Positions 9,101 through 64,000 of a stretch of DNA of 64,000 bases are shown here, piece after piece. Within the stretch, counting starts at the first letter, position 1, and each line of letters begins with the position of its first letter. Both the position numbers and the translations under genes were made by a program. The notes beneath the pieces are model-generated. The model was given only the letters and a program-made list of their open reading frames with translations. It was not told the DNA's origin and made no database searches. This DNA comes from a virus (taxonomy: Duplodnaviria; Caudoviricetes), in the IMG/VR virus record IMGVR_UViG_3300037634_006988, positions 23,916-87,915 of that record. The stretch is one strand, 5' to 3'.

Positions 9101-12100
9101 GCCCGTATCTTGACCATTATTGTTCGCATAATTGGAAGAAGCAGACAAAGTGCCAACATCCAATCCAACTGCTGGGTCTGGTGAGCCACTCGGCGGATAC
9201 CATACTAATGGTTCCTCCCCAAAACACCATACGCTTCTTGCTTGACCATCTTGATTTCCGCAAGAATTGGAAATTGTAGTTTGAAAACGAGCATACGCTT
9301 TTGCTGGGGCAATCGCGGCAGCTGGTCCGAGATCCGGAGCAACATACCTGTTTCGATTATAATCTGCATTTCTCCACAGTGTTCGCCTCTGATCCGGGTT
9401 GCGATCAATTCCATTGCTTCCCAAAGATAATGAAGCTGTTGGAGGAAACGCAGAATTTACTGAGGCAGTTTCTGCATATTTTGTTCTTCCGCGAGTTTCT
9501 GCAAGTCCTGTGTTGGCTCCGCGTGGATAAATAACTTCTGGATATATTAAGTTTTGGAATGCTGCCTGATAATCAGAAGCTCCTCTTAATTTATCATAAA
9601 TTTGTATATCAGATTTATAATTTACTCCACCAAGATATTCAGCAATAGACAGTTCTCGTTGATTAAGGGGCAGCCATCTTTGGGTCCAAAGACATTTATT
9701 GTTTCCATAAGAATGCCTTAAGCTAATTTTAGGATTTTGAAGGCGACTTGTGAGCGCACGGTATTTAAAAGTAACTGGCGGCTCAACAAAGTTTTTAATA
9801 TTGTTTGGTCCTGTCCGAGGATCAAAATAGGTTGCAGGCCTATTTGTTCCTGAACCATGAAGAACTGTCACAACTCCGCGTTTGGACCCAACAGAAAGGA
9901 TATTATTATTCTTGTGATACCGCGCAATCGGTGTTTCGCCAGTTCTAATTTGTTTCCAAGTTGGATGTTGATATGGACCATTGCGATGAAGATTCAATGA
10001 ATTGAGCACGGTTCCAGAATTAGCGGGCAATGAGGCAACTTGTCCGCGATAAGCCCCCAAACGAGCGTCCAATGGATAACCCAAAAGATTTGTTGAGGAA
10101 GTAAGAGGTTCATAAATTAATGAATTTAATCCCACAAAATCAGCACTAATTCCAAGTGCGCCTGTAACACTCGCACTAATAAATGGAATTGCCGATTGTG
10201 TTATTGAAGTTGTGCCAGATGGGACCGAAAACGGAACAATTCCACCCCAATCATGTGCGCCAATATGCCCCAACATATTACATGCAGATTTAGAAACTGA
10301 CGAAGTTATCCACGCATATTGAAAATCGCTTTGAGGAATCGGGTGTTGAATATACCAATTATCATAATTTATGCTGCAAGTTGAAGCTCCATCCGCAGGA
10401 ACTTTCCAAGGATTTCTATTAACCTTGTGATATGATGCAATCACACCATCATATGAATATGCATTAACTGTGTGTTCTGCTGGAGTTGTGCCATCTCCTG
10501 GGCTTCCTGTTGGATCAATTCCAAATTGTCCACAATGCTCTGTTAACCAACTATCTAATGCTTCACGTACAATCAGATTTCGATAATTTAATTCATTGTA
10601 AACAGAATATTCTTCTGCATTAACATCCATTGCACCACGAGGACTAACCTCGGGTCCACCAGGAGCATTAAATCTTTCAACAAAAATAGATTTATTTGTG
10701 CCCGTTAAATCAAATCTTGGAAGAGCATAATCAATTGCACCACTAAAAATGCCAGTGTCAGATGATGTGGGAGAGAAACCACCATTCTTTACAAAAAACC
10801 TATTATTTAATCTGCGACCAGATGTTTGAAGAATTTGATAACCAGTGGTATAATTGCCCACAACTGCCGACGATGTTCCCCATTTAATATTACGAATGTT
10901 TAGTGGTCGTTTTGCGTATTCATCGCGAATCATTGTTGCACGAGGTTGATCAACACCTCTTTGAGAAATGGTTAAAACATTAGATGCAAATGATAAATCC
11001 CACGCTTCGGGCCTGGTGTCGGTCGTGTCAGTCGATGCTGAATTAATATTTATATGACGATGCTGTCTTCCTCCAACATGCGCGTCAGTAAACGGACCTT
11101 GAACTGGAACTCCTTTATCATCTCCATAAACATCATCATGATAATTGTCAACTTCTGTTTTAGCTCTAAAATTTGTTGAAACATCGGCCACATAACCAGT
11201 TGTAACAGAGGAACTATACAAACTAAATGGGGCAAATATCTCACTTTTGCCGCTTGTATAACCATAAGGGTTTGTAGAATTAGCAACTTTAGCTTCTAAT
11301 CGATCTTTAGAATTGGGAATAATGACATCATCACAGCCAATTTCAGCAGGAATGCTGGAAGCAGCAATATCTAATTGTTCGGATGAACCAAACTTAAGTG
11401 CTTCGTGAGTATATTCCACTGTTTTGGCTCTTGGAAAATTAGAACCGCCATGAATTTCTAAAGACTCATCAACAGCCAATCTATAAATCTTTGTAAAATT
11501 CCTTAAAGCATATGCTTGGCCTTCATAAGTTGTTGTAGTTGCGGTTGAGTTTCTTGAAACCGCCAAAGTTGGTCCACTTCCACTACGGAAATCATCCGAT
11601 AATCGAACATCGTCACGTTGACTATCGACGGTTGAATCGCCAGAAGTAATATTAGAGTTGTCTCTATTGGCACGTCGCAGCCACCATTCGCAATTTGATC
11701 CAGTAGCAGTTGTAGGAATTGGCGCAATTCCACGCTTTCCTGAATAAAGCATTTCATTGATACCAAAAACACCAGCTTCTGGATCAGACTGCTTCATCTC
11801 CAAAGTAGGAAATTTAGACCAATATTTATTTCTTTCAAGAACGTGACTTTCAACCATAGTTCGCAAGTTTTCAGAAAAACGTGCAGAACCAGGCACAAGT
11901 TGTTGCAACATCACAGACAACGCCGAGTCTAACCATTTAAAATATTCAACAAATTTGTCGAGATCAATTGTGTTTTGAACTCTTTCAAAATAAAGTTGAC
12001 GCAACTTTTGCATACTTTTATATTCTTGGCGATAACGATTGACTGGCTCACCAATAAGATTATTAAAATCAACAATCGTTCCAAAAATATCGAGCATTTC

Positions 12101-15251: not shown

Positions 15252-16772
15252 TCACTCTATTACTCGAAATTTAAAAGTCTCAGGTTGTTCTTGGTAAGCG
15301 CCATTTATATAATACACGAACTTGATTCCATAAGCATAACCAGTTTCAAGCATTTTCATATCTAAATCAAAATAACTTCCGGTAACATCATATGAAAGTC
15401 TCGTGTGGTTTAAACTCCCAGTTCCATATGAAATAACATCCTTTTCATCAATCATCCTAAAAATTTTAAAATACGCATCTTCAACAATATCATTTGAAAT
15501 TGCCTTAGAAGCTACTGTGTAAATAGTTGGACTCCAATCTTTTAATCGAGTAAAGAGTCGGAACCGAGTTGTTCCATCATTATAGTATTCAGGCTCTAAA
15601 TTAGTAATAGTAGTGACATATCGGGGGATAGAAAAAATATTAGAAGAATTAAACTTCTTTGGTATAAACGATCCCGTATGATAAATTTTTACACCGGCCG
15701 TTGTTATGGCAGAACCTGATGAGCCAGAAAACCACCTATCATAAGCAAAACTGGCTGTTGTGTCGAGAGCAAAAGAAGCGCTATAAATTCCTGTAGCCAC
15801 ATAACCACCAGTGATTGGGTTATTGGGCGCAGCAGAAATTAATTCACCGGACGCGCCAGAAGTGTAAACATTAACATATATTGGACCCGTCCCAACATTT
15901 GCAAGATTTGTGGGTTGTCCTCTCACATAATTGTAAAGGTAAAGCGTGTTTAAATTGTCCGCAGCGCTCAAATTAGAGCTGGAAACATAAAAACTTCCAC
16001 GCTGATCCTTTCTGGTTGAGTTCCATCGGGCCTCAATAACTGGTCGAGAAAAGAAATATTCACTACTTCGTGCTGAAAACTTCTTTGTGTAATAAGATCG
16101 AGAGCCAGTTTCTTGGCTTTGTGTAAGCATAATACCCACACCATAATTGGAATAATCTCCTGCAATCCATTTTTCAACTAATCCAGTAATCTTAACTTCT
16201 AAATCTCCGGTTCCTTTTTCGCCAAAAGTCTGCTTATAATTAAATTCGTCATAAGTAGAGGTGGGAGACCCATTCCAAGAAGCACTCAAATAGCTTCCAC
16301 CCTCTAATGTGGTGCTATCAACGTTGGTCCAAACGGTGTTTGCAGCCGCATTTATCCAGTTGGATCCTGTGCCACCATAAGTATAGTCCGAATAATTATC
16401 CAAATCTAGTCCATCACCTTCCTGCCACGACTGAGAAACTGGGGTAACAACTAAAGTAAAGTTACGAGGAAGGGTTTGGGAGTGTTTTACATTGTAAAAT
16501 CTAAGATAAAAATCAACACTTCCGCTTGCTGGGATTGTTCCAGCAGATCTATCAGATTGAATAGTTACTGTGGCATCAGCCGTGACCACTGGAAATTGCG
16601 CCAAAACACGGCTTAATTCATATGAAGAGGAGCTTTTTTGAGCATAAATGGAGAAGATCTCTAACGAATCTGCTAAACCAATATTACTGCCCGTTCCGCG
16701 AGTTGTTAAATCCGCTTGATAGGCATTTGTAATTGTATTATCATAGATTGCGGTATATCTTTTAATACTCAT
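15252..16772 (-). CDS. Virion protein with an N-terminal DNRLRE-like domain (506 aa)
   Basis: The N-terminus DNTITN...SNIGLADSLEIF...SRVLAQF resembles the DNRLRE pattern; Ser/Thr/Gly-rich; baseplate context. Confidence 0.45.
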   Translation of the reverse strand: MSIKRYTAIYDNTITNAYQADLTTRGTGSNIGLADSLEIFSIYAQKSSSSYELSRVLAQFPVVTADATVTIQSDRSAGTIPASGSVDFYLRFYNVKHSQTLPRNFTLVVTPVSQSWQEGDGLDLDNYSDYTYGGTGSNWINAAANTVWTNVDSTTLEGGSYLSASWNGSPTSTYDEFNYKQTFGEKGTGDLEVKITGLVEKWIAGDYSNYGVGIMLTQSQETGSRSYYTKKFSARSSEYFFSRPVIEARWNSTRKDQRGSFYVSSSNLSAADNLNTLYLYNYVRGQPTNLANVGTGPIYVNVYTSGASGELISAAPNNPITGGYVATGIYSASFALDTTASFAYDRWFSGSSGSAITTAGVKIYHTGSFIPKKFNSSNIFSIPRYVTTITNLEPEYYNDGTTRFRLFTRLKDWSPTIYTVASKAISNDIVEDAYFKIFRMIDEKDVISYGTGSLNHTRLSYDVTGSYFDLDMKMLETGYAYGIKFVYYINGAYQEQPETFKFRVIE

Positions 16773-18574
16773 TACTTAATCGTTCCTTTAATATCTGTGT
16801 CGGGATATTTGATTTCAAAAATAACATTTTTAGGACAGTCTATGTAGCTTCCATCCGCCGAATAAAGCATATTAATATCTATAGGTTGAGTTGAATAATT
16901 GGTTCCAGATTTCTGAACAATATTTACCCGCGTAACATCAATGATTCCCTTCATTTTGTTAAGTTGGCTATAGATGTCGGACACATAAAATGGTTGCCCA
17001 ATCTCAAATTTTCTGTTATAATAACCACTCAATTGTGAAATTGCATCGCTTAAAACATCAAATTTGTTTGAATCTAATCCGGCAATTGCTGTAAATTCAA
17101 TTCCTATATTAACAATTTTGGTATCCAAAATATCAACGGTATCACTAATCATTTTACCCTGATTTAGCCATTGTTTTAAATTTTCTTTGATTGCGGGATT
17201 TGATTTTACTAAGGTTCCATCTTCAGCTTCAGAAATAACATATAAATTAAGGTTTCTGCGTAGCGAACTTGAGTCTCGGACGATGTTTACGCGCTTTACA
17301 CCACCATATTGAGGAGGCATTGCATAACACAGGCTTCTATAATCTTCCGCCGTTACTGCACGATTTTGCGCAGAAAACACATTATAGATTCTCTTTTTCA
17401 ATTCCTCTGTCGTTGGAAGCATTACATCTCCTGTAATTGGTTCCTCATTGTTTACTTCCAGTGAACCAACAACGGTTCCCAACGTGGTTGAATTTAGTGT
17501 TGCAAGCTCTTTAAAGTCCCAAAGTGGAGCATCTACATTCGTTAATGCATTTGCAGAAACATTAACATTATCGGCATCATTTACACGATATGTAACTGTT
17601 AATGTCGTATTCGATGGAGCAACACCGAACTTATCTGTTTTCAAAAAATTACCCGGATCAATAGTTGCGTCAGAAACATAGTCTTTTCCATGAACTTTCA
17701 TTACCACTTTACTTGGGTCAACTAAAGAATCGGTGGCAAGTGTGGTGTTTGTCGTTCCAAAACCAAATTGAAGAAAAACATCTGTTTGAGTTCTTTCTGT
17801 AACAAAACGCCGAGGAACAACAAATGGTCTTAATGTATTTTGAGTAACAGAACTATTATCTCCTCGGTTCAATGTAGATTTATAAATGGTGTCTTGTGAT
17901 AAATAATCCACCTCAAAATACTCATTGCCCTCTGAATCTACCACAGAGACAATTTCAGTAACATTGGTTCCATTTAATTTAAGTTTGAGAAATTTCTGAA
18001 ACTTGCCAACTACGACCTCTTCTCGATTTATTTTGCCAGAAACCACTTGACCTTTACCCCTAATTGCAAAACTTGTGGGGGTTCCATTGTCGCTATTTAC
18101 TTCAGCAATTACAATTTCATTAGCTGGATTAGAAAAATTAATGTCTTCATTTAGTGTAAAACCAATACCATCAATGGAAGAAAGCGCCGCCCCCCTCTTT
18201 AAAATAGGAATATAATCGGTGTTTGGGCCAGCCCCAACTGAAGCTGCGGGTACAATGATGTAAAATGTGGCTTCGCCCGCAGATGCAGCGCTAGGATTAA
18301 ATTTATAACCCATTTGTCGCCCCAATTTGATGATATTCTCATACTCAATGGCAGTGTCGAGGAAAGACTCGTTAACGCTGTAGTCCAAATAAAACGATAA
18401 AATATCACCAATATAGGCGGTTGTATCGACCATCAACGAACCAAAACCTGACTCGCTGAAATCTTTAAAGCTGTTGGGGTAATAGCGTTTTGCGTAATCT
18501 AATAAATCTTCACGAATAGAATTAAAATCGCGTGATGTATAATCAATAAGTGGATATTGTTTTTTTGAGCCCAA
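16772..18574 (-). CDS. Baseplate wedge subunit (T4 gp6 / baseplate J-like)
   Basis: IDYTSRDFNSIREDL...YYPNSFKDFSESGFG...AYIGDILSFYLD and AQNRAVTAEDY are hallmark gp6 motifs. Confidence 0.9.
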   Translation of the reverse strand: MGSKKQYPLIDYTSRDFNSIREDLLDYAKRYYPNSFKDFSESGFGSLMVDTTAYIGDILSFYLDYSVNESFLDTAIEYENIIKLGRQMGYKFNPSAASAGEATFYIIVPAASVGAGPNTDYIPILKRGAALSSIDGIGFTLNEDINFSNPANEIVIAEVNSDNGTPTSFAIRGKGQVVSGKINREEVVVGKFQKFLKLKLNGTNVTEIVSVVDSEGNEYFEVDYLSQDTIYKSTLNRGDNSSVTQNTLRPFVVPRRFVTERTQTDVFLQFGFGTTNTTLATDSLVDPSKVVMKVHGKDYVSDATIDPGNFLKTDKFGVAPSNTTLTVTYRVNDADNVNVSANALTNVDAPLWDFKELATLNSTTLGTVVGSLEVNNEEPITGDVMLPTTEELKKRIYNVFSAQNRAVTAEDYRSLCYAMPPQYGGVKRVNIVRDSSSLRRNLNLYVISEAEDGTLVKSNPAIKENLKQWLNQGKMISDTVDILDTKIVNIGIEFTAIAGLDSNKFDVLSDAISQLSGYYNRKFEIGQPFYVSDIYSQLNKMKGIIDVTRVNIVQKSGTNYSTQPIDINMLYSADGSYIDCPKNVIFEIKYPDTDIKGTIK

Positions 18575-57196: not shown

Positions 57197-57856
57197 ATGA
57201 AACGGTTAATTCTCTCTGATTTGCACCTTGGTTGCTCTCATTCGAAGGAAAAAGAGCTTTTGTCCTTTTTGCGAGCCAATAATGACTTCGATGAGCTAAT
57301 TTTGGCCGGTGATATTATCGATTTTCTCTTAATTCCGACATTTACTGAGCAATCAGCCAAACTTTTCCAATTTGTGGCCGATTTCCCTGGAAAAGTCGTT
57401 TATATCGTGGGTAACCATGACATTCCCTTTAGATCTTGCATTGGAACCACCATATTTGGGGTAGAATTCGTCGAAAAGTGGGAATTTGAGGAAGATAACA
57501 AGAAATACAGGATAGAGCATGGTGATACATACGAAAAAGGCATCATTCATCGAAGAACATTGATTAGAATCATCTGTGTACTGCGAGATTTCTTGGAAAG
57601 GCTCTTTAAATGGAATTTATCTGCTTGGTGGCAACACCTTTTCAGCAATAAAATGAAATTAAAGAGGATTTGGGACATTGTTCAGTGGAATGATGAAGCA
57701 GATGTCTTTATTATGGGTCATACCCACGAACCAGAAGTATTAATTTGGGTAGATCAGGACCAAAACATCAAAACATACGTTAATTCAGGTGATTGGACAG
57801 AACATACGACTTATGTTACTATAATTGATGGTGTAACAAGGCTAAAGAAGTTTTAG
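57197..57856 (+). CDS. Calcineurin-like metallophosphoesterase, LpxH/YbbF-like
   Basis: SDLHLG, GDIID, GNHD, HGD, GHTH and NSGDW motifs. Confidence 0.8.
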   Translation: MKRLILSDLHLGCSHSKEKELLSFLRANNDFDELILAGDIIDFLLIPTFTEQSAKLFQFVADFPGKVVYIVGNHDIPFRSCIGTTIFGVEFVEKWEFEEDNKKYRIEHGDTYEKGIIHRRTLIRIICVLRDFLERLFKWNLSAWWQHLFSNKMKLKRIWDIVQWNDEADVFIMGHTHEPEVLIWVDQDQNIKTYVNSGDWTEHTTYVTIIDGVTRLKKF

Positions 57857-58248
57857 GGTTCCCCACTTGGTCGTGCTGGCCAATCTATTCCCTCTATTGC
57901 ATCCCACATTTGGGTTCCTGTAGGATAATTCACACCATCTTGAATTCTTCGGGCATGAAAACCAGCCAAAGCAGTCTCAAGCCCAAGTTTTGTTGCCCAT
58001 GACTGCGCATTTCCAACATTTCCAGGTTCTTCCAGCATTTCATCCCATAAAGTAGCCATATCTTTTACAGTTCTTCGGGCGTATAAAGCCCGCGCCATTG
58101 ATTTAATATAACTATTAACAACCATTGGATAATCTGGTCCAGATAAAGCAGCAAAATCTAAAGGTTTATCTTCTACCCCCATATCAATGCCCTCATCCCC
58201 AATTGCTTCATTTATAAGTTGCATTAATTTTGATTTAGTTAGTTTCAT
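57853..58248 (-). CDS. Hypothetical protein with an MKLTKSKLMQLINEA N-terminus
   Basis: N-terminal motif and upstream element shared with 49391-49702. Confidence 0.6.
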   Translation of the reverse strand: MKLTKSKLMQLINEAIGDEGIDMGVEDKPLDFAALSGPDYPMVVNSYIKSMARALYARRTVKDMATLWDEMLEEPGNVGNAQSWATKLGLETALAGFHARRIQDGVNYPTGTQMWDAIEGIDWPARPSGEP

Positions 58249-60496: not shown

Positions 60497-60664
60497 TTAA
60501 ACATATTTATCCCCTTCAGCCGCCACAATGTCCAAAAGATCGCCTTCCGAGTTAAAATGAATTTCAACATAAGCATTATCCAAGACAATCAAATGCTCGT
60601 TCCACTCATCGTGGTCAATGTTTGCAGCCTCCAAAAGAGCCACAATTTTTTCTTTATCGTTCAT
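60497..60664 (-). CDS. Small acidic hypothetical protein (55 aa)
   Basis: SD AAGGA before MNDKEK. Confidence 0.55.
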   Translation of the reverse strand: MNDKEKIVALLEAANIDHDEWNEHLIVLDNAYVEIHFNSEGDLLDIVAAEGDKYV

Positions 60665-60788
60665 AAAAAGTTCCTTGTTCATTTATATCATATTTTATGT
60701 CATTTGTCAAGACCAAAACCATCACACAAAACACAAAACAAAATATAAAAGATATGATACCAAAAATGTCAGTTTTTTTGTTTTTCAT
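60654..60788 (-). CDS. 44-aa membrane peptide
   Basis: MKNKKTDIFGIISFIFCFVFCVMVLVLTND...; its start context GCAAATGAAAAAC resembles the array junctions. Confidence 0.4.
   Translation of the reverse strand: MKNKKTDIFGIISFIFCFVFCVMVLVLTNDIKYDINEQGTFYER
60682..60710 (-). promoter_or_regulatory. Sigma70-type promoter
   Basis: TTGACA-N17-TATAAA. Confidence 0.6.
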
Positions 60789-61005
60789 TTGCTTTCGCAA
60801 TCAGTTTTAATTCGTAGTGTTTAAAAGCCGCTCGCCTTCCGTCAGCAAACAACACTTCCCACTCTTTTAGATGTTCGTCAAGATGTCGGCTTTCTGCAAT
60901 CAAACGAACAATCATTCCTTGTTTGTTGTGAAAAAACCGCAAAGTGGGACTTAGGTCATTATTTTTTATTACTTCAACCAAGTCACCGACCTCCAAATCA
61001 CCCAT
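60769..61005 (-). CDS. SH3/KOW-like array unit 15
   Basis: LEVGDLVEV...GMIV...VLFADG...LKLIAKA. Confidence 0.7.
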   Translation of the reverse strand: MGDLEVGDLVEVIKNNDLSPTLRFFHNKQGMIVRLIAESRHLDEHLKEWEVLFADGRRAAFKHYELKLIAKANEKQKN

Positions 61006-61032
61006 GTTATATAAATATGCAACATTTTGAGT

Positions 61033-61254
61033 TTATGCCTTTGCAGAAAGAGTAGTAGAATTTAAATTCCATTCATCCTTCTTGCCACAAGAATCCAAAA
61101 CCCAACATCGGCCGCCCCAAGACGAGTAACTCAAAAATATTCCATACATAACATAAACTTCAGAACGAACGGCACGCCCTCCGTCATCAAACAGAATTTT
61201 GTACTCCCATGACTTAATAAGATCGCCGCACTTAAAAATAGGTTTGATGTTCAT
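61033..61254 (-). CDS. SH3/KOW-like array unit 14
   Basis: FKCGDLIK...YGIFL...LSAKA; ATGA-coupled. Confidence 0.65.
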   Translation of the reverse strand: MNIKPIFKCGDLIKSWEYKILFDDGGRAVRSEVYVMYGIFLSYSSWGGRCWVLDSCGKKDEWNLNSTTLSAKA

Positions 61255-61463
61255 GGTTCTGCCATAACTCTTACATCCCAACGATAAACCCACTCTTGTC
61301 CGCTCGATGATTCGTCAGCCCAGTAAACTTTTATAGCCCCTTTGGGTAAACCTTTAATTGGGCCGAGATCAGTGATTATGCCAAATCTCTCTTCTACCGT
61401 CCGCCTTCTGTGTAGAGTTACCTTAACAAGACTACCTTTTTTTATGTCATTTTTATTATTCAT
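61251..61463 (-). CDS. SH3/KOW-like array unit 13
   Basis: IKKGSLVKV...FGII...VYWAD...VRVMAEP. Confidence 0.7.
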   Translation of the reverse strand: MNNKNDIKKGSLVKVTLHRRRTVEERFGIITDLGPIKGLPKGAIKVYWADESSSGQEWVYRWDVRVMAEP

Positions 61464-61651
61464 GCTCGCTTCTTTACAGCGCGCCGCCAAAGATGTGATG
61501 TTAATCCGTTGTTCATGTATACTTTTATTATTTTGGTACGTTCGATGCTTGGATCCTCTAAAACTATTCCATAAAAGCCATTATATTCAGAATCGAGAAA
61601 ACGTGGATCTTCCTCAATTATCACAAGATCGCCTGGCTTGAGGTTATTCAT
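61460..61651 (-). CDS. SH3/KOW-like array unit 12
   Basis: LKPGDLVII...YGIV...VYMNNG. Confidence 0.7.
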   Translation of the reverse strand: MNNLKPGDLVIIEEDPRFLDSEYNGFYGIVLEDPSIERTKIIKVYMNNGLTSHLWRRAVKKRA

Positions 61652-61872
61652 TGTTTTGCCTTTGCAACAATGGAAATGGTTCGTTTAAGATGAGTGGTTT
61701 GTCTGCCGTCTTGCCATCGAACCCAAACATATAAATGTGAATCGCGAATCTTTTTGTGTTTTATGGCTTCAAGTACATGATGAGGCACAGGCACAATAAC
61801 TCCAAAGAATCCATTCCGCTCGCCAAGCGGACCTGTCCATTCAACAAAATCTCCAACTTCAAAGTTATTCAT
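61648..61872 (-). CDS. SH3/KOW-like array unit 11
   Basis: MNNFEVGDFVEW...FGVI...VRWQDG...IVAKAKQ. Confidence 0.75.
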   Translation of the reverse strand: MNNFEVGDFVEWTGPLGERNGFFGVIVPVPHHVLEAIKHKKIRDSHLYVWVRWQDGRQTTHLKRTISIVAKAKQ

Positions 61873-62115
61873 TGTTTTGCCTTTGCGACAAGTTGCAAGT
61901 CACTCAATCTAAATGATTCTATTGGATCGATAAAGTGAACCGATAATGAGTCTTTATCTGCGCAATTAACAATACCATAAATTCCCGGAGATCCGTCGCG
62001 CCAAGATTTGCGAAAATCAATTCCGTGCATATTCTTAATGTCCGCCTCGGCGGGGCTCAAAGAAGGATGCCAAACAAAATCTCCAACTTCAAAGTTATTC
62101 ATTGTTGTGCCTTTG
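61843..62115. repeat. Junction-spanning direct repeat, 42/43 bp identical (61843-61885 and 62073-62115)
   Basis: aacaaaatctccaacttcaaagttattcattgtt(t/g)tgcctttg; a 23-bp portion also matches exactly between 61643-61665 and 61864-61886. Confidence 0.9.
61869..62102 (-). CDS. SH3/KOW-like array unit 10
   Basis: MNNFEVGDFVW...YGIV...VHF...LQLVAKAKQ. Confidence 0.75.
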   Translation of the reverse strand: MNNFEVGDFVWHPSLSPAEADIKNMHGIDFRKSWRDGSPGIYGIVNCADKDSLSVHFIDPIESFRLSDLQLVAKAKQ

Positions 62116-62317
62116 ATAATAATTTGAGTGATGTCATACTACCCTCTGCGAAAATTCGATGTTCACCACCGACCATAACTAATTCATATAATAACCTTCC
62201 ACTGGGGGTTTTCTTTATCTTTTTTATTATGCCCACATTATTAAAAACATAACTAAACACTCCTTTATAATTTATTTTAATAAGATCGCCAACATTATAT
62301 CTTTGTTCGTTATTCAT
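62099..62317 (-). CDS. SH3/KOW-like array unit 9
   Basis: YNVGDLIKI...GII...LKLLSKAQQ. Confidence 0.75.
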   Translation of the reverse strand: MNNEQRYNVGDLIKINYKGVFSYVFNNVGIIKKIKKTPSGRLLYELVMVGGEHRIFAEGSMTSLKLLSKAQQ

Positions 62318-62520
62318 CTTGATTTTGCCTTAAGTTTAACATCAGGTGTTAAATACCATCCAATATCGCCATCGAGGAAAAGAATTTTATATTCCTCGGG
62401 AAATGTTACGTTTCTTCCATTTTCTAATATAATTATGCCGGTGCAGAGGAAGTGGTCCATGCGGCCCCTCCGGGGCACCTCCACAAGATCCCCAATTTCG
62501 ATTTTTTGGTTGTTTTTCAT
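62314..62520 (-). CDS. SH3/KOW-like array unit 8
   Basis: IEIGDLVEV...GII...ILFLDG...VKLKAKSR. Confidence 0.75.
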   Translation of the reverse strand: MKNNQKIEIGDLVEVPRRGRMDHFLCTGIIILENGRNVTFPEEYKILFLDGDIGWYLTPDVKLKAKSR

Positions 62521-62696
62521 GCTAGCACCACTAAAACGCTAAGACTTTCCAACTTTCTGTTACCAGTAGACCAGTGGATTACCGCTTCATGGCAGACTGG
62601 GAGAATGTCAATAACCACGCCAAACTCATTTATTCGTGGCCAGCCCTTCCCAACAAGACTACCAACTTTTATTTTTTTTTGTCTTTCGTTTTTCAT
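62517..62696 (-). CDS. SH3/KOW-like array unit 7 (59 aa, below the ORF-track cutoff)
   Basis: Manual translation MKNERQKKIKVGSLVGKGWPRINEFGVVIDILPVCHEAVIHWSTGNRKLESLSVLVVLA; ATGA overlaps at both ends. Confidence 0.75.
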   Translation of the reverse strand: MKNERQKKIKVGSLVGKGWPRINEFGVVIDILPVCHEAVIHWSTGNRKLESLSVLVVLA

Positions 62697-62905
62697 GCTA
62701 GCACCTCAAACCCGTGGTCCATAACCCAACATCTATCTCCATTTTGAAGGTGAATATGGTACTCCACGAACACGTTGGTGTACGCCTCGACTCGAATCCC
62801 ACAAACAATTCCATAAAGGCCGTTCAGCTCTTTCCTCGGTCCCGACGGACCCATATCGAGCATTTTCACCAGGTTGCCAGGTTTTAATTGTTTTTCGTTT
62901 TTCAT
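62693..62905 (-). CDS. SH3/KOW-like array unit 6
   Basis: LKPGNLVKM...YGIV...IHLQNG...FEVLA. Confidence 0.75.
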   Translation of the reverse strand: MKNEKQLKPGNLVKMLDMGPSGPRKELNGLYGIVCGIRVEAYTNVFVEYHIHLQNGDRCWVMDHGFEVLA

Positions 62906-63093
62906 GCTAGCACCTCAAAGTCAGATTTATAGAAGGTGGTCTCGTAGCCGCCTTGAAGATGAATACAGTAGTGAATGATGACTTGGTTAAGCGAGATCTC
63001 CTCACAAACAATTCCATAATATTGCCAAGCCCAACTTTGGTTGTTAATAATGCGAACAAAACTGCCAATTTTAATTTGTTTTTTGTTTTTCAT
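62902..63093 (-). CDS. SH3/KOW-like array unit 5
   Basis: IKIGSFVRI...YGIV...IHLQGG...FEVLA. Confidence 0.75.
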   Translation of the reverse strand: MKNKKQIKIGSFVRIINNQSWAWQYYGIVCEEISLNQVIIHYCIHLQGGYETTFYKSDFEVLA

Positions 63094-63352
63094 GGTGCCG
63101 CCACAACCTCAACTAAATGTGGATATGAAAAACCTTCCTCTCCGTTGCTCCAGTGAACTCGAATACAATCTTCACCACGAGCCAGCATCCCTTTTTCGAT
63201 AAACTCAAGTGTTCTGAGTTTACTATTGGGCCTTCCCCGTCGAGGGCGCGGGTTCTTGAGATATTCAATTACAACACCATATCTCGACGTATTGCTGCGG
63301 GCGGCCCGACTACGAACCATGCTGCCAATTTTAATTTGTTTTTCGTTTTTCA
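63062..63352. repeat. Gene-start direct repeat, 30/31 bp (63062-63092 and 63322-63352)
   Basis: ctgccaattttaatttgttttt(t/c)gtttttca. Confidence 0.9.
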
Positions 63353-63353
63353 C
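63090..63353 (-). CDS. SH3/KOW-like array unit 4
   Basis: IKIGSMVR...YGVV...VHWSNG...VEVVAAP; GTG start. Confidence 0.75.
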   Translation of the reverse strand: MKNEKQIKIGSMVRSRAARSNTSRYGVVIEYLKNPRPRRGRPNSKLRTLEFIEKGMLARGEDCIRVHWSNGEEGFSYPHLVEVVAAP

Positions 63354-63574
63354 GCTAACACCTCAAACTCGTCATGCCGCAACCAACATCTTCTATTATT
63401 TTGCAAATGAATAAAATAACGTGCTTCGGTGGCGCTGCCAAGCGGCCCGCACCAGTATGTTTCAATCTTGCAAATAATTCCATAAAGTCCCCCCCGCTTC
63501 ACCAAGTCCATGAGGCCAACATATGATTTTACTTTCACCATACTGCCAACTTTTATTTTTTCAAAGTTGTTCAT
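63350..63574 (-). CDS. SH3/KOW-like array unit 3
   Basis: IKVGSMVKV...YGII...IHLQNN...FEVLA. Confidence 0.75.
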   Translation of the reverse strand: MNNFEKIKVGSMVKVKSYVGLMDLVKRGGLYGIICKIETYWCGPLGSATEARYFIHLQNNRRCWLRHDEFEVLA

Positions 63575-63789
63575 TATTTTGCTTTTGCCACAAGTTTTAA
63601 ATTTGATGGCCTTTCCCAGTCCTTATCGCCATCATTCCACTGCACAAAAATATCATGACTATCCTCTTCTAGCGGAATGTCAATATTTATTACAATTCCA
63701 AGGTGTTGCCCGCCCCACTCGCCTACAGTAGCGCCAACCCATTCAACCAAATCGCCCTTTCCAAGCTTCCACTTATCTTGGGTTTTCAT
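63574..63789 (-). CDS. SH3/KOW-like array unit 2
   Basis: LGKGDLVEW...LGIV...VQWNDG...LKLVAKAK; start moved to the ATGA-coupled MKTQ. Confidence 0.75.
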   Translation of the reverse strand: MKTQDKWKLGKGDLVEWVGATVGEWGGQHLGIVINIDIPLEEDSHDIFVQWNDGDKDWERPSNLKLVAKAK

Positions 63790-64000
63790 CGTTTTGTCCT
63801 TTCTACCTTGGTTAAATAAGTTGTATGATACCAATCTGCCCAGCCCGTGCCCCATTGCACTTTAGCGAAGGTGCCCTGGTAGCCACGATGTTCAAGCATA
63901 ATAATAATTCCCCACATTATGCCATCAAGATTCAGCCAATTGATAGGGGGTTTCTCCGGTAGGTGATCATATTCGACTAGATCTCCAATATTAAATTTTT
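63786..64000 (-). CDS. SH3/KOW-like array unit 1 (N-terminus beyond the window)
   Basis: Manual translation ...KFNIGDLVEY...WGII...VQWGTG...LTKVERTKR*. Confidence 0.7.
   Translation of the reverse strand, partial: KFNIGDLVEYDHLPEKPPINWLNLDGIMWGIIIMLEHRGYQGTFAKVQWGTGWADWYHTTYLTKVERTKR

Follow-up and report, generated by a model that had tools for sequence, protein, structure and literature searches.

How can a long chain of translationally coupled phage genes stay functional while whole genes enter and leave it? This question is raised by one end of a 64,000-nucleotide stretch of DNA (here called the window), the last 64 kb of the 87,915-bp IMG/VR virus record IMGVR_UViG_3300037634_006988 (CheckV completeness ~48%), which stems from an uncultured marine phage. 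Between the contig end at position 64000 and position 60769, 15 small genes of 59 to 87 codons follow one another on the minus strand, which carries nearly all genes of the window. We found that short DNA repeats centred on the gene-gene joints of this array are more conserved than the encoded amino acids require, and that whole genes have been inserted, deleted, or replaced between near-identical relatives, the breakpoints lying inside these repeats. The exchanges are probably due to general homologous recombination of the phage between the conserved ends of paralogous genes, which would make the array a coding-embedded variant of the 'linker' shuffling described for the intergenic promoter-early stem-loop (PeSL) motifs. 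The few bases that couple the translation of neighbouring genes would then double as homology for in-frame swaps of whole genes. An original prediction, made from the letters of the window, had proposed an integron-like cassette system with coding-embedded recombination sites; its crossovers at the joints that move whole genes were borne out, whereas the dedicated integron-like system was not.

Conserved repeats at the joints of a minigene array

The 15 genes were named U00 to U14, and their coordinates run from the lowest base including the stop codon to the first base of the start codon; all array features given in the following lie on the minus strand. In the direction of translation the array comprises U00 (63786-64000, cut by the contig end), U01 (63574-63789), U02 (63350-63574), U03 (63090-63353, with a GTG start), U04 (62902-63093), U05 (62693-62905), U06 (62517-62696), U07 (62314-62520), U08 (62099-62317), U09 (61869-62102), U10 (61648-61872), U11 (61460-61651), U12 (61251-61463), U13 (61033-61254), and U14 (60769-61005). 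ATGA stop/start overlaps chain U00 to U13, with no intergenic DNA among the units linked in this way, and a 27-bp gap lies between U13 and U14. All 15 genes are head-to-tail paralogs, as indicated by two alignments (A1 and A2), a profile search, and a common predicted barrel. Their consensus consists of a leader M(N/K)N...xG(D/S)(L/F/M)V, a central G-(Y/F)-G-(I/V)-(I/V) motif, a strand V-x-W-x-(D/N)-G, and a tail such as VAKAKQ or FEVLA. The array is truncated by the contig end at 64000, and relatives, which we labelled L001 to L020, add ~19 units upstream. When L020 and L003 are combined, the full array has ~34 units and begins after a DUF8033 gene; across all haplotypes there are >50 distinct units.

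In the stretch 60700-64000 we counted 39 repeated 18-mers, whereas 200 codon shuffles produced none. The repeats are centred on the ATGA overlaps of consecutive genes, and the mean pairwise identity between units is highest from about -17 to +28 of the ATG and at background (about 0.25) elsewhere, in agreement with the original description of conserved joints and diverged gene middles. The repeat pairs listed there were all recovered at the same positions and with exactly the same match counts. They fall into two families. Family A (KAKQ stop/MNN start) is represented by 61843-61885 at the U09-U10 joint, which matches 62073-62115 at the U08-U09 joint in 42 of 43 nucleotides (nt), and by 61643-61665 at the U10-U11 joint, which is identical in 23 of 23 nt to the 3' part of 61843-61885 (from 61864). 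Family B (FEVLA stop/MKN start) is represented by 62684-62710 at the U05-U06 joint, which matches 62893-62919 at the U04-U05 joint in 27 of 27 nt and 63341-63367 in 25 of 27. The latter is part of a longer element at the U02-U03 joint (63322-63367), in which a family B repeat is combined with the N-terminal leader of U03; its part 63322-63352 agrees in 30 of 31 nt with 63062-63092, the N-terminal leader repeat of U04 (codons for KNKKQIKIGS), and these two leader copies form the crossover zone of the U03 insertion or deletion (indel) described below. The families are clustered rather than mixed, as had been noted before: the joints of U02-U07 are of the FEVLA/MKN type, and U08-U11 are joined by the KAKQ/MNN type. 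An exact scan of IMG/VR viral contigs for the family B motif gave 0 matches.

The pair U09 and U10 (units 10 and 11 of the original prediction) illustrates the contrast between ends and middles. Both proteins start with MNNFEVGDFV and have barely alignable bodies, as predicted, although their tails (VAKAKQ) match as well, and their upstream joints share 42 of 43 nt, including seven consecutive synonymous sites. When mapped on a structural model, the conserved DNA corresponds to the tail that follows strand 5 and lacks structure, to the stop/start overlap, and to the leader and first strand of the following gene. The unit tails spell AAGG or GAGG 8-13 nt ahead of the next ATG. Folding of nine 70-nt joints as single-stranded DNA gave z values of -1.06 to +1.80 and no hairpin or inverted repeat, which is what translation initiation regions should show. 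Promoter-like and terminator-like sites within the array did not exceed the shuffled expectation, and none was located at a joint.

Codon identity at the gene ends

The original prediction had reasoned that synonymous sites should be more conserved at the joints than within genes if the joints serve in recombination, and this is the pattern that we observed. We determined the fraction of aligned identical residues that are encoded by the identical codon and compared it with the expectation from codon usage. For unit pairs, which are not independent of each other, this fraction was 0.58 at the N-terminal end (0.42 expected), 0.63 at the C-terminal end (0.39 expected), and 0.41 in the middle (0.39 expected). 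When codons were redrawn with the proteins kept fixed, a match as long as the observed 30 nt at the N-terminal end arose in 0.3% of the trials, and five unit pairs shared at least 14 nt compared to means of 1.1-1.6. Junction identity thus exceeds amino acid constraint.

Whole-gene differences between near-identical relatives

Homologues of the array were found in marine metagenomes only. Contigs from several independent assemblies that are 98-99.9% identical to the window differ from it in unit content, and between near-identical haplotypes we identified at least nine clean whole-gene events; at every one of their breakpoints, 14-45 nt of junction sequence are shared. According to the original prediction, crossovers between joints would insert or excise whole genes while preserving frame and translational coupling, and variation at the joints should be visible in relatives; deletion, insertion, and replacement were all observed, with breakpoints in the junction repeats.

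In structural variant 1 (SV1), the body of U03 (63110-63313) is present in the window haplotype only and absent from L003, L004, L005, L007, and L015, with the breakpoint in the leader repeat; in the contigs of the Logan runs X3-X5, the segment 63191-63307 is not covered at all. SV2 comprises the 385 bp of U05 and U06 (62512-62896), which are present in the window and in L004 and absent from L003, L005, L007, and L015. An 18-nt patch over the stop/start overlap borders this segment in two identical copies (62512-62529 and 62897-62914). At the U01-U02 joint (63566-63574, SV3), two extra units of 74 and 64 amino acids are found in L003, L004, L005, L007, and L015, and at the GDLVE codons of U01 (63743-63764, SV4) L004 carries ~384 extra bp with a 22-nt patch on both sides of the insert. 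U11 (61460-61651) has undergone an allele replacement of the whole unit: it is 10.9% diverged from L003 and L004, with all differences at 61478-61643, and the flanking units differ by at most 1.3%. The single-nucleotide polymorphisms of U11 recur in runs X3-X5. U05 is preceded in L001 and L002, where it is 98% identical, by a different gene, and the homology begins exactly at the U05 ATG. In the upstream part of the array, two haplotypes (A and B) are distinguished by three clean one-unit indels with a shared junction of about 38, 18, and 14 nt, and L003 and L004 are 99.8-99.9% identical apart from two whole-unit indels. The crossovers use several sequences, namely the stop/start core, the N-terminal leader, and the codons of the GDLV strand.

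Of the internal ends of similarity blocks (n=130, many of which represent one event seen in several pairs), 81% lie within -25 to +45 of a start codon, compared to an expected 31%. A second, diverged lineage on Tara scaffolds of 83-174 kb has a syntenic array in which the borders of replaced segments coincide with gene starts or GDLV codons. A metagenome scan with U08 yielded one new locus only, with the L003 haplotype, and in an exact-protein look-up U06 led to L004 alone and U04 to no record. As a separate observation, the joint of U03, the gene with the GTG start that is confined to the window haplotype, shows two substitutions relative to the family B consensus, and the protein contains a 24-residue insert that is unusually basic; in L001 (162-429) a copy of U03 with 78% identity occurs in another context.

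Conserved joints might in principle reflect constraint and selection only, in that the joints are dual coding, as they comprise the ribosome-binding site, the stop/start overlap, the leader codons, and the first strand, illegitimate recombination strikes anywhere, and all other products are dead. This explanation agrees with C-terminal tails that place AAGG or GAGG at the distance of a Shine-Dalgarno site, with joints that are as free of structure as initiation regions, and with sampling that is limited to viable haplotypes. We nevertheless consider it improbable, given the 14-45 nt of identical sequence at the breakpoint of every clean event and the use of several different patches. Nine perfect hybrid joints would rarely be expected from illegitimate joins, and constraint does not readily account for adjacent paralogs that share a nearly identical joint through seven consecutive synonymous sites and have unalignable middles.

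Coexistence of both forms in single samples

Two independent samples contain both forms of SV2. In run X4, a 404-nt contig with a depth of 14.4 joins 62511 to 62897, which corresponds to the SV2 deletion, and a U06 contig representing the insertion form has a depth of about 4. In run X3, the end formed by the SV2 deletion has a depth of about 40 and the U05/U06 contig of the insertion form one of 5.3. With both forms present in the same sea-water samples, the natural evidence for whole-gene exchange is unusually clean.

That the structural variants are mere assembler mis-joins at repeats is very hard to believe. Unitigs of the source sample do break at every junction and many contigs terminate inside the array, as the mis-join explanation would have it, and the junction repeats in fact explain why assemblies of these phages break in the array region. 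The joints, however, recur across samples and pipelines (JGI 3300002514, 3300025141, 3300025131, and Ga0080013; ENA ERZ27249081 and ERZ27249063; Logan). Moreover, the 18-nt SV2 patch is shorter than the 31-mers of Logan and is spanned by the 404-nt contig with at least 194 nt on each side, and the window order U04-U05-U06-U07 is independently reproduced by L004.

Two further observations concern the depth of individual contigs. The U05-U06 unitig (62497-62905) of run X1, which is probably the source sample, has a depth of 29.5 compared to 14-17 for its flanks, i.e., ~2-fold, and a loose end at 62905 matches the upstream context of L001/L002; the doubled depth and the loose end indicate that the U05-U06 pair occurs in two contexts within this sample, in either one genome or two. 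Run X3 contains one joint that 'goes back 385', with 33 nt on one side only and a depth common to other odd joints. As the 'goes back' joints have short sides of 33-42 nt and share one depth, they most likely derive from other paralogs, and we did not count them as evidence for circles or tandem duplicates.

Recombination genes and a model for unit exchange

Judged by its sequence, the phage is a distant T4-type myovirus. Its gp17-type terminase large subunit (TerL) shares 44% identity with the TerL of Flavobacterium phage immuto and about 35% with those of T4-like cyanophages, and the phage also encodes a portal protein, a prohead protease, and a primase. In the same record outside the window (L012, 12851-15994) lies a gene for a fused SbcD-SbcC (gp46/47-like) protein of 1047 amino acids, and a RuvC-like resolvase is encoded as well. 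The SbcD-like module is a metallophosphatase and the SbcC-like module a Rad50-type ATPase, joined in one protein; the T4 counterparts gp47 and gp46 are separate proteins.

The original prediction saw no recombinase in the window and named short-homology recombination or a phage single-strand annealing protein as candidate mechanisms. Extending the search to the whole 87,915-bp record gave no match to tyrosine recombinases (PF00589), serine Resolvase, or reverse transcriptases (PF00078, RVT_1), although the record covers about half of the genome, so that the absence of recombinases from the phage is not established. A single-strand annealing protein was likewise not found in the 88 kb, which hold the SbcCD-like and RuvC-like genes. 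Short-homology recombination by phage enzymes fits the presence of these two genes. A diversity-generating retroelement is not supported, given the lack of a PF00078 match in the ~48% complete record and a divergence between alleles that is not adenine-specific.

In our model, the repeats represent the ends, 5' and 3', that are conserved among the paralogous minigenes of a large tandem family. Each joint serves several purposes at once, as it carries a C-terminal tail (AKAKQ, FEVLA, EKVAE, etc.), a Shine-Dalgarno-like site, the ATGA overlap, a leader rich in A, and the GDLV strand with which the barrel of the next protein begins. Since these end patches stay alike among otherwise diverged paralogs, they could serve as homology stretches of 14-45 nt. 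General recombination of the phage, possibly with participation of the SbcCD-like and RuvC-like proteins, would use them for unequal crossover between misaligned arrays of co-replicating genomes or for exchange with co-infecting relatives. Each such crossover would remove, add, or exchange whole genes or alleles and leave the translationally coupled chain functional, and repeated exchange may keep the joints uniform, a concerted evolution restricted to gene ends while the middles diverge. A large and fast-changing set of small binding proteins could in this way be shuffled and yet remain fully expressed.

Several points weigh against this model. Only surviving recombinants were sampled, and selection for intact chains could concentrate breakpoints at the joints even if breaks were random. 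The joints of SV1 and SV3 are not simple hybrids of the two flanking copies in the window. RecA/UvsX, AAA_24/Sak4, RecT, and ERF were not found in the 88-kb record, which is ~48% complete. The codon-identity test is not decisive by itself, as position-specific selection on codons of the initiation region may add to synonymous conservation, and the unit pairs used in the codon tests are not independent. Finally, the population evidence consists of assemblies and of Logan contigs from four runs (X1 and X3-X5) rather than of raw or long reads.

Quite unlikely, in our view, is a dedicated cassette system in which a phage recombinase or a homing endonuclease targets the joint and units are excised, possibly as circles. 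The U05-U06 pair in two contexts, the 'goes back 385' joint of run X3, an HNH-AP2 endonuclease gene between unit blocks in L001, and the mini-circles known from PeSL motifs (PMC2839356) would be in line with such a system. It is at odds with the lack of an integrase, resolvase, or reverse transcriptase match in the 88 kb, with joints that lack hairpins and inverted repeats, and with a crossover sequence that varies between events; there are also no intergenic sites. The 'goes back' joint most likely reflects another paralog, as it has 33 nt on one side and a depth like that of other odd joints. We give as little credence to a related version, in which the coding-embedded joint has been selected as a portable recombination module, served by a factor from the missing half of the genome or by the HNH-AP2 enzyme, with units often excised, perhaps as circles, and re-inserted. 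If it were true, the phage would possess a combinatorial, integron-like repertoire of small host-binding proteins without intergenic sites.

The endonuclease-like gene itself (L001, 2263-2805) encodes HNH_3 and AP2 domains and is situated between two minigene blocks, adjoined by genes for a MoxR-like AAA_5 ATPase and a DUF2201 protein. Double-strand breaks introduced by this enzyme could stimulate local exchange.

Comparison with known systems

General homologous recombination between paralog ends has its closest parallel in the hyperplastic regions of T4-type phages, where the same shuffling logic operates at intergenic PeSL motifs (Arbiol et al. 2010, PMC2839356; Comeau et al. 2014, PMC4122927). 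The authors of these studies drew the comparison with integrons, found no dedicated recombinase, and invoked T4 recombination on patches of <50 bp (PMC2839356, PMC4122927). PeSL shuffling is itself a case of the modular exchange at 'linkers' in the sense of Botstein and Campbell. Both systems belong to T4-type phages and consist of small accessory genes flanked by a short reiterated motif, and in both near-identical phages differ by whole-gene insertion, deletion, or replacement with breakpoints in the motif. For neither is a dedicated recombinase known; the explanation offered for both is that the general recombination of the phage makes use of short homology. PeSL motifs, however, consist of an intergenic sigma-70-like promoter and a terminator hairpin, which insulate unrelated ORFans transcriptionally, whereas the array has no intergenic DNA, promoter, or hairpin. 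Its linker belongs to the reading frames of the two adjoining genes and contains the ribosome-binding site as well as the stop/start overlap; all genes that are shuffled are paralogs with one fold, and mini-circles have been reported for PeSL only. With this array, the 'linker' model of modular evolution in phages, known for PeSL motifs between genes, would reach into coding sequence. Our literature search found no paper that describes such a coding-embedded junction arrangement.

The array also resembles tandem gene families shaped by unequal crossing-over and concerted evolution, with which it shares tandem paralogs, a copy number or content that changes between close relatives, and recombination between repeated units. 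Elde and colleagues reportedly described in 2012 the amplification of K3L in poxviruses, one of the 'gene accordions' of host-antagonist genes in large DNA viruses. Unlike in gene accordions, the homology in the array is limited to about 15-50 nt at the unit ends, with unalignable bodies, so that exchanges would reshuffle distinct genes rather than amplify one. Like integron cassettes, the units are promoterless single genes in one orientation that are gained or lost whole at unit boundaries; unlike in integrons, we found no IntI, attI, structured attC, or intergenic sites in the ~48% complete record, and the crossover sequences are variable. Translational coupling by an NTGA overlap and a Shine-Dalgarno site within the preceding gene is a general principle and not a recombination system. 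The array shares with it the ATGA and the upstream AAGG or GAGG, but here the element is reiterated >30 times and coincides with recombination breakpoints.

Predicted small-barrel fold of the minigene products

The minigenes are predicted to encode small barrels of the SH3/Tudor/KOW type. An AlphaFold2 model of U10 (pLDDT 90.9, pTM 0.79) shows a five-stranded small barrel with one inserted helix. Its best matches in the PDB were the PHF1 Tudor domain, the Spt5 KOW domain, a designed SH3 barrel, and YorP, with TM scores of 0.55-0.65 and E values of about 0.01; in the ESM Atlas the barrel matched PetP with a TM score of 0.69. Weak profile matches were obtained to eL21, the SH3 repeats of MIB1, and NusG, and Pfam and PHROGs searches with the units found no family above threshold.

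A profile search of the full library retrieved 259 relatives at E <= 0.001, and in some of these, which are long proteins, the domain is present in up to 19 copies. Two of these, P0054 (2380 amino acids) and P0055 (1319 amino acids), hold 13-19 tandem barrel copies within a single protein, and P0055 contains eight SH3_15 repeats of the Mind-bomb type. 'Beads on one chain' and 'one gene per bead' are, on the evidence of these proteins, alternative layouts of related domains. Searches of a phage isolate collection with the array by blastn and tblastn gave no match, and a profile search of the two closest isolates gave a single marginal match in Flavobacterium phage immuto (E 0.006), which has no array there.

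The differences between the U11 alleles are largely non-synonymous, with 10 residue changes per 21 base changes. The units most likely act as variable host-binding or early accessory proteins. This uncharacterised and abundant SH3-like family of phage minigenes offers candidates for functions in host take-over or counter-defence.

Further features of the phage and its relatives

No terminal redundancy of the contig was found. Directly after U14 in minus-strand reading, at 60682-60770, a near-consensus promoter-like site (TTGACA-N17-TATAAA) precedes an unrelated gene for 61 amino acids (60497-60682); it was found by eye, is absent from the list of the promoter scan, and marks where the coupled chain ends on its 3' side.

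At least eight otherwise unrelated proteins of the phage start with nearly the same helix, MKLTKS(K/Q)LQQ(I/L)IKEE. Their genes are located at 1758-17286 of L012 (G000:C1) and at 57853-58248 of the window; examples in L012 are 11625-11987, 16057-16323, 16320-16661, 16663-16953, and 17029-17286. This helix represents a second portable, conserved gene start in the phage and is possibly a targeting or processing tag.

In the second lineage, Tara scaffolds (L008, 7484-10257; also L009, L010, and L011) carry adjacent genes for malate synthase and isocitrate lyase, which follow closely downstream of the minigene array. As auxiliary metabolic genes, the two make up a complete pair for the glyoxylate shunt.

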